Notes under the pieces: model-generated
Seen by the model: only the letters and a program-made list of their open reading frames with translations
Databases searched by the model: none
What the model was told of the DNA's origin: nothing
Assembly: GCA_044892525.1 (NCBI GenBank)
Contig: CM097885.1
Location: 62,186,001 to 62,250,000, forward strand
DNA from: Schmidtea polychroa
Lineage: Eukaryota
Direction: 5' to 3'
Length of the DNA: 64,000 nt
Part shown: positions 50,779-63,999 of the stretch, one piece after another
Layout of the letters: the number at the start of each line of letters is the position of its first letter
Numbering within the stretch: the first letter of the stretch is position 1
Made by a program: the position numbers and the translations under genes

Positions 50779-53700
50779 CTATATACGTGAGCTTGGAGGG
50801 CGCTGAGCATTCCAGGCCTCCACCCACTGTTCCTGCTTGATATTACTTGGTCGTTTTACACGATGTTGAAAATTTCTTATTCTGGCCATCTCTAGTTCTC
50901 CGCGATGCCGTCTATCTTTGATTATTTTTATTGTCCCCCCCGTTATGATTAAAAAGGCCCCTGTTATTATTATGCCGCTGATCCACATCATCTGTTTTAC
51001 GCTTATAATTTCCGCTTTTTCCTTGTTCATTATTGTTGATATTGCCTCTGTGCTTTTTAGATTACCGTCTTTGCCATTTCCTTTTATCATTCCTCGTATT
51101 CTTGCTATTTCCTCGTTCATACCTTCCTTTGCCATTCTTTGTATTTTCTCCATCTCTTCCTCTGATACATAATTGTCCTGATATTTCTCACTGGTTTTCT
51201 TGCGTTTTCCTTGCTCATCTTTTTCCTCATTGAATTTTCTTTTCCTCCCTCTTTTCCCAGGGTATCGTCGACATTCTCTTTCTGGACCGTTTCTCAGGAT
51301 ACAGACCGTATATTCCTTTGGTGGTTGTTGTTGCGTTACATATTGTAGACAATTTTCTCCTGGTCCTAGCCTTGAAATACACACTTTGTGCTCTTTTCTT
51401 GGTTGAAGCTGTGTTATCACTATTTCACCTCCTTTACTCAGGTGTACCTCTTTCCATTTGACTTTTGTTTTCTTCTTCCCGTTTCGATGTTGGTACGCTT
51501 CTTGTATTCCCACTTCCGTTATTGGTTCTGCATCTTCATTTTTTAACACTAGTCTCTGATAAGCTCTAGACATACATCTTCCTAATATACACCTTTCTTT
51601 TAAATCCCATTCCTCTTTTAGATCCCATTGCTGCTCTTGTACTTGTTTTTTCTTTTCTTGTTTTAGTTCTTCCTCTTTGTTGTCCTTATTTTCCGTTTCT
51701 TTGGCTTCTTTTATCGTTCTCATTCCTCCCTGGGCTGTTATCATTTCCACCATTGTTAATACGAGTATCATTATCATCATATTTGTCTCCATTTCTTTGT
51801 TGGTAAAAAGTAGGCATACCCTCTGTTTTCCACTATTCGTCTTTTCTTCTTGCTTCATTCGGTTTCCCGGGTTATTTTCCTCTTTTTTCATACTCGCGTC
51901 GTTATTTTCTTGATTATTCTCCTCTGATTTCTCTTTCTCTTTATTTCCGTTTCGACCTTTTTCATTATTATCGTCGTCTTTATCGTCTTTATCTCCCCCG
52001 CTATCGTTTAAAATGTCGTCCTCGACATTTATATCATTCAACAATCTGCGGTATGCCGTTAGCACTCTGTTTCTTGCTAATTTTGCTTCGAATTCAAACT
52101 CCTTTCTGCCTGTTGCTGCATGTCTCTTTCTATTCCATTCTTTTACCAGTTCTCTCAATTGTATACGGCGATGTTTTCCGATTCGCTTTTGTTCGTTTAG
52201 ATTTTGCGTGAATTTGAGGTCTTCTCTGTTCAATACGATCATTATGATTTTCGGAGTTCCTCCTTTTGTTAGTGTATTTTTAACCATAGCATTTTCTCCG
52301 TTTTCGTAGAACTCATTTATATTTATTGCATATTTATTGCTTTGCGGTATTTTCCATGTTAGCAATAACTTCATGGCTTCTAGGCTCACCCGTATCGTGT
52401 TCCATTGGAACTGTGACGTGTTTTTACAGATATTTTCTACCTCAGTTCTTGTAGCATTTTTACAAATGAATCTAATCATTTCCAAGTTTGGTTGTATTGT
52501 TGCCCAATCCATGGTAGAATTTCCTTCGTTTGATATTTCGTCAAGTCTCGAACCTGATTGATGTAGTATATGTAAGGTTTTCGGGTGTATCTTTGTTATT
52601 GCTGCATACATCATTGCTGTTTCTCCTTGTTCATTTTTTGCATTAGATTCTTCTCCGAAGTCTCTAAGAATTCTTATGATGGTTATTGCTCTGTTTTCTT
52701 TTGCTGCTAAAATGGCTTGTTGTAATGGTGTTCTTGAATCTTTTGTTGGTAAGGTGAATGCTAGTGGTATAAATGTTTTTATTTTTTCTATGTCTAGATT
52801 TGTGGTCTGGTCTCTCGCGTAGGTGTGTACTGTTTTTGTTATTTTTGCTAGTATCGCTTCATCGGATAGATCTTGCATTTCTTCAAAGAATACTTCTTTA
52901 GCCTTACGTATTACTATCTCTTGGTCGGAGTTTATTATCTTTGGTTTACTTGTTGTTGCTATATCGCTTATTATTTGATCGACTCGTTTCTCAGACTCTC
53001 TTGCTGTTATTTTCTTGATTTTTATCTTTTTCTTGTTCGAACTGTTAATGCGTTCCTCTGCCGTTAGAACTTGAATAATACTTAGGTAGTTTTCTCGAAT
53101 GTTATTCATAGTTTCCATCATATATAATACACTCACGGTTTCCCAAAATTTTACTTGTACTTTATCGGTAAATTGAGATATAGCTTTTTCGAAGTTGGTA
53201 ATTCGTTTTCTGATTAGTTGTTCGTCTTTGTGATTTGAAAACTTTATGCCACGTTGTAGTAGTTGATTTGGAATTTCGAATAGGTGATGTCCTCTCATCG
53301 CTTCTCTCATCAAAGTGTTTTCTCCTTTGGTGAATGTTTCGTTTATATCTACCATATAATCGTTTTTGATCGGGTTCCTCCATGCAATTAGTAATCCCGT
53401 AATTATTATTAATTTCTCTTTGATCGCAGTTAATAACCCGTCATACATGTTTCCTATCTCCCTATTATCCTCGTATGACAATAGATCCACTAAGATTATG
53501 AATGCTTCAGTGCTCTTTCCTTCGATTGCATGATGTAGTGCGTTTTTCTGGTTGTGATCTTGTGTGGTTATCTTTGACCCAGTTTCAAGTAATGCGATAA
53601 TAATATCTTTAGCTTTATCCCGATTGGCTGCTATCATTAGTGGAGTGTAACCTTGGTTGTTTTCTTGATCCGTCGAAATGTTACAGTCGCGAAATGCTTC

Positions 53701-63999: not shown

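Follow-up and report, generated by a model that had tools for sequence, protein, structure and literature searches.

Why would a retroelement carry, in one reading frame of several thousand codons, an envelope of viral type together with a series of host-like domains, and what could become of such a polyprotein? The question is raised by a stretch of 64,000 nucleotides from Schmidtea polychroa (GenBank assembly GCA_044892525.1, contig CM097885.1, positions 62,186,001 to 62,250,000 of the forward strand), here called the window. An earlier note had described in it a single frame of at least 4,400 codons, ending at position 50779, that fuses gag, at least five non-retroviral domain types, an envelope (env) and pol, and had compared it with the giant Burro elements of planarians. 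The locus is a recently inserted, full-length Burro-type Ty3/Gypsy copy. The giant single frame is a property of its family, and this copy is decayed. Every segment tested is under purifying selection, env almost as strongly as pol. We consider it fairly probable that the Burro-type polyprotein, of about 4,600-4,800 residues and likely multi-pass, is cut into the parts of an enveloped particle and into proteins that control the host.

Element structure and reading frame

The element measures 30,603 bp, with an internal region of 22.1 kb between long terminal repeats (LTRs) of 4.26 kb. Its 5' LTR was found once the neighbouring 30 kb were added (positions past the window edge are given as continued coordinates). 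The LTR pair is 99.46% identical (15 mismatches and 2 gaps over 4,261 columns). Terminal TG...CA and a 4-bp target duplication, TTAT, were read directly. A primer site that matches the 3' part of a host tRNA-Pro(TGG) lies 7 nt inside the end of the 5' LTR. These features, together with intact protease, reverse transcriptase (RT), RNase H and integrase motifs and many open copies, identify a transposition-competent family design. The following features define the element and the state of its frame:

41402..45659, minus strand: 3' LTR, 4.26 kb, terminal CA (alignment to partner; ends read directly)
continued 67749-72004 (G000:C1:62253749-62258004), outside the window: 5' LTR partner
61405..61407, minus strand: in-frame stop codon in this copy (sense codon in 9/9 other copies examined)
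50779..61404, minus strand: 3,541-codon polyprotein part after the internal stop (open reading frame (ORF) translation)

On the minus strand, the phase from 50779 to 63999 spans 4,407 codons and is broken by the TAA at 61405-61407 (codon 865), which splits it within the window into 864 aa, open at the 5' side, and 3,541 aa. Outside the window, the phase begins at continued coordinate 64974 and is broken again by an in-frame TAA at continued coordinate 64240-64242, 241 bases past the window edge. The single frame of the earlier note thus holds for the family, in which the frame runs without a break for 4,731-4,811 codons in 8 of the 20 copies fetched, and does not hold for this copy, which is interrupted twice. 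Open frames of at least 4,700 aa hold 67 of the best-scoring 150 of 976 candidates, a set that is skewed to young copies and in which a match with a stop inside it counts as a miss.

Programmed read-through of the TAA at 61405-61407 was considered and rejected, since the nine other copies examined all carry a sense codon at this position. With LTRs that differ by 0.35%, the frame would have gathered about 24 changes after insertion, so about one stop is expected. To an assembly artefact as the source of the long frame or of its stops we give scarcely any weight: the two stops do rest on assembled sequence, but the same frame stands at dozens of independent loci, and the LTR divergence would itself predict about one stop.

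Further observations concern the element and its primer. Genes for tRNA-Pro(TGG) form a tandem array with a 475-bp period at G000:C1:130.90-130.95 Mb (L074), and the tRNA-Pro(TGG) pattern has 2,190 matches genome-wide. Ahead of gag, the leader that follows the 5' LTR contains a tandem repeat of about 74 bp (L011:1923-2255). Two element copies at G000:C2:107.34 and 107.37 Mb lie in the same orientation 26.4 kb apart, a spacing of about one element minus one LTR; they are likely a tandem pair with a common LTR.

Domains of the polyprotein

From the 5' end of the frame within the window, the polyprotein contains the following features, in which UBL denotes ubiquitin-like, SP a signal-like segment and TM a transmembrane segment:

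63745..63915, minus strand: three CCHC zinc knuckles, nucleocapsid (PF00098, E 1.7e-8); the capsid part lies past the window edge
62425..62649, minus strand: UBL1, the weakest of three (member of profile A1; conserved in relatives P0002 and P0115)
62134..62427, minus strand: helical segment, the best candidate for the 'CARD-like' call (ratio of non-synonymous to synonymous rates (dN/dS) 0.01)
61882..62136, minus strand: UBL2 (PI3K_rbd, E 6e-4, a weak beta-grasp match; member of profile A1)
60979..61404, minus strand: four-helix bundle and UBL3 (structure model, pLDDT 81)
59965..60432, minus strand: Bcl-2-like domain, BH2 kept, BH1 NWGR degenerate (profile A2)
59797..59868, minus strand: env signal-like segment SP1 (basic-hydrophobic-small pattern ahead of YDC)
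58150..59799, minus strand: chuvirus-type (gB-like, class III) fusion glycoprotein ectodomain (PF24664, E 8e-72)
58045..58131, minus strand: putative env anchor TM1, then a conserved weaker hydrophobic segment (hydrophobicity)
57184..57459, minus strand: aspartic protease, DTG (PF00077, E 1e-7)
56845..57114, minus strand: protease-RT interval at the site of the dUTPase-like segment of Burro (fit of position and length only; no Pfam match, the published call being by HHpred)
55468..56520, minus strand: RT and RNase H, YIDD and TDAS intact (Pfam)
54070..55146, minus strand: integrase with H2C2, core and GPY motif (Pfam)
52450..53802, minus strand: ankyrin repeats in frame 3' of integrase, limits approximate (PF12796, E 4.8e-16, two stretches)
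51727..51792, minus strand: second signal-peptide-like segment SP2 (hydrophobic peak; putative signal function)
51325..51600, minus strand: FN3-like domain in the second ectodomain (profile A5)
50929..50991, minus strand: putative C-terminal segment TM2 (Kyte-Doolittle peak)

All 14 cysteines of env are kept in 9/9 aligned relatives that are only 35-41% identical. Env gave no match among PDB sequences, phage records and viral contigs. An SP1-like pattern precedes the YDC of env in 10/10 relatives, and the distance from the BH2 GGW to YDC is 45-73 residues in the four relatives with both Bcl-2 and env. The Bcl-2-like domain was recognized through the four-sequence profile A2, which matches Bcl-2 and Bcl-xL structures (E 1.7e-4), and through PF00452, which matches sister families F2, F3 and F4 at E 2e-6 to 4e-3 and the window alone at E 0.1. 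Upstream of Bcl-2, an AT-hook-like GRP[KR] motif occurs at about residues 1164-1172 of the translated window frame and recurs in F3, P0005, P0006, P0010, P0036 and P0058.

Upstream of the zinc knuckles, Retrotrans_gag is matched (PF03732, E 1.3e-8). Profile A1 of the UBL modules matches ubiquitin and ISG15. Only UBL3 was modelled, and its model superposes on ubiquitin with Z 11.2 and a root-mean-square deviation of 2.0 over 70 aligned residues; UBL1 and UBL2 are supported by profile A1, and UBL2 also by PI3K_rbd. In single-sequence PDB searches, the Bcl-2 and UBL pieces gave nothing significant. The four-helix bundle is common to segments of 20 relatives, and families that are 35-40% identical in env retain both Bcl-2 and the bundle-UBL module. 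The comparison did not show the first two helical segments to be homologous to this bundle (probabilities 7% and 4%), and even the third scored only 6.0-6.3 bits against shuffle maxima of 3.9-5.7.

A likeness of the bundle to host TFIIS N-terminal (Med26) domains may be taken as a lead only: the bundle profile scores 13 bits in register in one of four and below 2 in the other three, and the profile-profile probability is 1%, inside the range of column shuffles. The genome has a multi-copy, single-exon TFIIS-N/Med26 gene family with frames of 450-520 aa at G000:C2:164-173 Mb (L084-L092).

The fusion proposed in the earlier note stood for gag, the three UBL segments (UBL3 by fold, the others by their shared profile), Bcl-2, the chuvirus-like glycoprotein, pol and ankyrin, and its TM segments correspond to hydrophobic peaks that repeat in relatives; the CARD-like domain found no support, its absence not being proven. 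The segment at 62134-62427 has no match in Pfam, PDB sequences or PDB profiles, a profile of four host CARDs gives a probability of 2%, and the best hit of an Atlas feature search (0.78) is to UBL clusters. Its shallow model, built from three sequences, is one 47-residue helix with short helices and no bundle (pTM 0.35); its structural matches are coiled coils only (Z <=5.9), and no death-fold entry is among the 50 matches listed.

Downstream of integrase, the window continues with ankyrin and then a unit of SP2, ectodomain and TM2. This second module had been overlooked as a unit in the earlier note, as had the LTRs and the accessory genes. It is also present after integrase in F2, F3, F4 and P0003-P0005, with ectodomains that can barely be aligned, and in L081, a metagenome contig, integrase is followed by a signal-like segment and a hydrophobic end. 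No such module is seen in the 3,036 residues of P0006, and a search of 850 candidates gave no homologue of the C-terminal module. In P0003-P0006 and P0058, up to three aspartic-protease-like copies were seen, in the tail after env, in the usual place and after integrase.

Selection

Constraint was estimated as pairwise Nei-Gojobori dN/dS between the window and the six most distant of the 20 copies (93.5-94.8% alike). The env ectodomain (550 codons) has dN/dS 0.02; its differences per copy number 43 synonymous and 2.3 non-synonymous. Values are 0.00 for RT, 0.01 for integrase, 0.02 for Bcl-2, 0.01 for UBL2 and, as listed above, for the 'CARD-like' helix, 0.12 for ankyrin, 0.20 for the second ectodomain and 0.30 for the TM2 region. 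Groups of closer copies (5 and 2 copies) are consistent, with noisier values of up to 0.38; the other 7 copies did not enter the comparison. That synonymous distance changes from one part of the element to another suggests that subfamilies have recombined.

These values bear on the main rival explanation, that the element moves only within the cell and that env is conserved because it is embedded, since misfolding or lost membrane segments would leave pol mislocated or degraded. We regard this as unlikely, though it deserves serious weight: the single frame ties env to pol, env has one glycosylation sequon only, and the accessible text of PMC6431247 and of PMC13524379 contains no particle or fusion data. 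A dN/dS of 0.02 along the ectodomain and 14/14 conserved cysteines, however, exceed the needs of folding alone. A clean in-frame loss of SP1, env and TM1 would also remove the cost, yet all intact relatives that are long enough to be assessed keep env, most relatives having been found through env.

The same values speak to whether the cargo domains are host-derived passengers with no role for the element, which we judge very improbable. Cargo does vary: L081 is without UBL and Bcl-2, P0003-P0006 are without ankyrin, and MATH lies in frame in P0115 and in a separate gene here. Against this, all cargo segments have dN/dS 0.01-0.30 in the most distant group, well below 1, and the bundle-UBL module and Bcl-2 persist at the env divergence given above.

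Accessory genes

Between the polyprotein and the 3' LTR, and within the LTR, are further ORFs:

50254..50637, minus strand: 128-codon accessory ORF (dN/dS 0.16)
48773..50212, minus strand: TRAF-like gene with RING, zinc fingers, coiled coil and MATH (PF21355, E 8e-25; PF00097, E 5.5e-5)
46633..48560, minus strand: two charged, coiled-coil-like accessory ORFs of 254 and 347 aa, no significant family match
45917..46411, minus strand: small accessory ORF with one hydrophobic segment
41937..42695, minus strand: 252-aa ORF within the 3' LTR and again in the 5' LTR, without a family match

Against the most distant copies, the TRAF-like gene has dN/dS 0.10 and the charged ORFs 0.18 and 0.06 (254 and 347 aa, respectively), indicating purifying selection. 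Another RING accessory gene lies upstream of the polyprotein (PF13920, E 1.8e-8). By Pfam, MATH is found only in the downstream gene at 48773-50212 and not in the polyprotein, and BIR has no match in polyprotein pieces or in accessory ORFs of at least 120 codons. Elsewhere in the window, a remnant of another retroelement, with gag-like and protease ORFs, occupies 17823-19851 on the plus strand.

Relatives and known systems

At least three further env-bearing families are present in this genome (F2, F3, F4; L054-L059, L068-L072), with frames of 3,334 aa and about 3,050 aa and one that is broken. They carry one or two bundle-UBL modules, Bcl-2 and the FN3-like C-terminal membrane module. An ORF 3' of a sister family (L071:5767-7224, minus strand) has a DEDDh exonuclease-like motif by eye and no Pfam match. 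P0115, a relative, carries an in-frame MATH domain flanked by UBL2 and the third module; there it is 30% identical to the window, and this colinearity ties the window to the published layout of Burro1. Metagenome contig L081 (440-8521) carries a compact frame of 2,693 aa with the order gag, signal, env, TM, protease, RT, RNase H, integrase, signal and ectodomain, without UBL or Bcl-2; to judge from it, the core layout is wider than Burro. Trees of env and RT concur on three pairs; the branch of the window among its unnamed relatives is long and its placement weak, so we make no claim on its origin.

Burro elements (GYPSM1) have been described with gag, CCHC, Ubi/SUMO-like, BCL-2, a dUTPase-like segment, ankyrin, MATH and BIR, and with an env in frame between gag and pol that matches mononegavirus fusion glycoproteins, and they have been proposed as proviruses (PMC6431247; this and the other articles cited here are represented by their accessible text). 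BURRO1 RNA is found in differentiated planarian cells upon loss of SMEDWI-2 (PMC8532177). We compared the window by description with Burro1/GYPSM1 and Burro-2 to -4 of Schmidtea mediterranea and with the Burro-like element of Dugesia tigrina (PMC6431247). Common to them are a size of about 30 kb, long LTRs (the Burro internal region is up to 25 kb), accessory ORFs and one long ORF, about 4,900-5,100 aa there and 4,731-4,811 codons in the present family. Three CCHC knuckles, the succession of Ubi/SUMO-like, BCL-2 and in-frame env before the protease, the order protease, RT, RNase H and integrase, and the presence of ankyrin and MATH are likewise shared (PMC6431247).

Differences are found in the cargo. 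MATH belongs here to the separate downstream RING-TRAF gene, in S. mediterranea Burro to ORF1, and in D. tigrina it lies upstream (PMC6431247). The present element also has three UBL segments, no BIR match, an extra upstream RING gene and a C-terminal module of signal, FN3-like domain and TM, which is unmentioned in the accessible text of PMC6431247. Because MATH lies outside ORF1 and BIR is not matched, the element is, on its domain content, of Burro type and not Burro1 itself. The Burro-type Gypsy identity given in the earlier note is borne out by the order gag, cargo, env, pol and ankyrin in one frame. That note had left it to be checked whether the domain set was already described; the giant frame and most of the domains are in fact published for planarian Burro and are not new. 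Among the features that go beyond the accessible text of PMC6431247 is the second membrane module.

A catalogue of gB-type GAG-ENV-POL elements includes six from Schmidtea mediterranea (PMC13524379). These gB-type errantiviruses of Platyhelminthes, Bryozoa and Nematoda (Smed_errantivirus_1-6) have a Ty3/Gypsy pol and a gB/chuvirus-type env before pol, and they share with the window a signal and TM around env and many young, near-identical LTR copies (PMC13524379). The env of the window is by eye nearest to Smed_errantivirus_5 (roughly 55-60% over about 130 residues), and sister family F3 resembles Smed_errantivirus_3 (PMC13524379). The accessible text of that work covers ORF order and env structure; it gives no primer tRNA for the six Schmidtea elements, mentions neither Burro nor fibronectin, and is silent on Bcl-2, UBL and any second membrane protein. 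Anakin, a mosquito LTR element, has a chuvirus-type glycoprotein like that of the window; it belongs to BEL/Pao, not Gypsy, and is without the window's cargo (PMC7642597). Troyka, with CG...CG ends, a 3-bp duplication and no env (PMC12440569), was rejected as an assignment: the window has TG...CA ends, a 4-bp duplication and env.

In the open-access literature searched, we found no account of SP1 doubling as a Bcl-2 anchor, of env constraint near the level of pol, or of TRAF as a downstream RING-MATH gene. A second membrane module after integrase was also not found there; figures or supplements of earlier work may already show the C-terminal module.

Proposed polyprotein processing

The order of signal-like and TM segments suggests how the polyprotein could be divided. 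In flavivirus and alphavirus polyproteins, internal signal and stop-transfer segments split the chain into cytosolic and luminal products, and viral Bcl-2 proteins are a tail-anchored Bcl-2 fold. The polyprotein may follow the same working principle; the window is a reverse-transcribing LTR element, and no sequence kinship is claimed. Gag, the bundle-UBL modules and Bcl-2 would be made in the cytosol. SP1 would direct env to the lumen of the endoplasmic reticulum and, because Bcl-2 proteins are tail-anchored, could after signal cleavage remain as the C-terminal anchor of Bcl-2, a dual role. TM1 would bring the chain back to the cytosol for pol and ankyrin; SP2 would direct the FN3-like domain to the lumen, and TM2 would anchor this second surface protein.

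Host signal peptidase and the element protease would cut the chain, the protease possibly acting on the cytosolic side at aliphatic-N-M-M-like sites. Several of these sites are at domain borders and none is in either luminal domain; there are 13 against 4.6 expected, a number reached by 3 of 2,000 shuffles, with the enrichment inflated by the post hoc definition of the motif. The gB-like env would mediate fusion of particles with other cells. In the producer cell, both cell death and innate signalling would be held down by the cargo of Bcl-2, UBL, ankyrin, RING and TRAF domains.

The post hoc motif is one of several points that weigh against this reading. Particle, cleavage, topology and fusion are inferred, not observed. 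Signal and TM segments were called from hydrophobicity (Kyte-Doolittle) and conservation, with no dedicated predictor, and the weaker segment after TM1, if it crosses the membrane, puts pol in the lumen. The env of the window has one N-glycosylation sequon and the second ectodomain has zero. Production of gag, env and pol in equal amounts from one frame is unusual for particle assembly. Because BH1 is degenerate, anti-apoptotic action is not implied by the fold, and since no BH2 motif precedes env in P0003-P0006, P0058 or L081, the Bcl-2 anchor would be optional.

The FN3-like assignment belongs among these points. Profile A5 (the window and three sister families) matches the FN3 repeats of Tie2 (5utk) at E 1.3e-4, a value that is the sum over three repeats of one target, and the window taken by itself offers a short motif. 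The segment has no Pfam fn3 match, no pairwise match to the F3 segment and no usable Atlas match, and a profile of segments from relatives did not recover it. Finally, the dN/dS pairs are not independent of one another: all have the same reference, and the copies are related.

Taken further, processing into particle parts and host-control proteins would make these elements infectious enveloped planarian retroviruses, with a gB-like fusogen, an FN3-type surface protein serving as attachment factor or receptor decoy, and a Bcl-2 anchored by the env signal, spreading from differentiated to stem cells while the producer is kept alive. We put this forward tentatively and regard it as doubtful.

Biological significance

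The constraint on env, together with predicted cleavage products and their predicted locations, makes the hypothesis that Burro elements are proviruses testable. The candidate second membrane protein recurs across the lineage, including the compact 2,693-aa relative without cargo. If particles do infect neighbouring cells, a transposon family that numbers hundreds of copies would be on the move within an adult stem-cell system, and this would bear on why planarians run a somatic piRNA defence.

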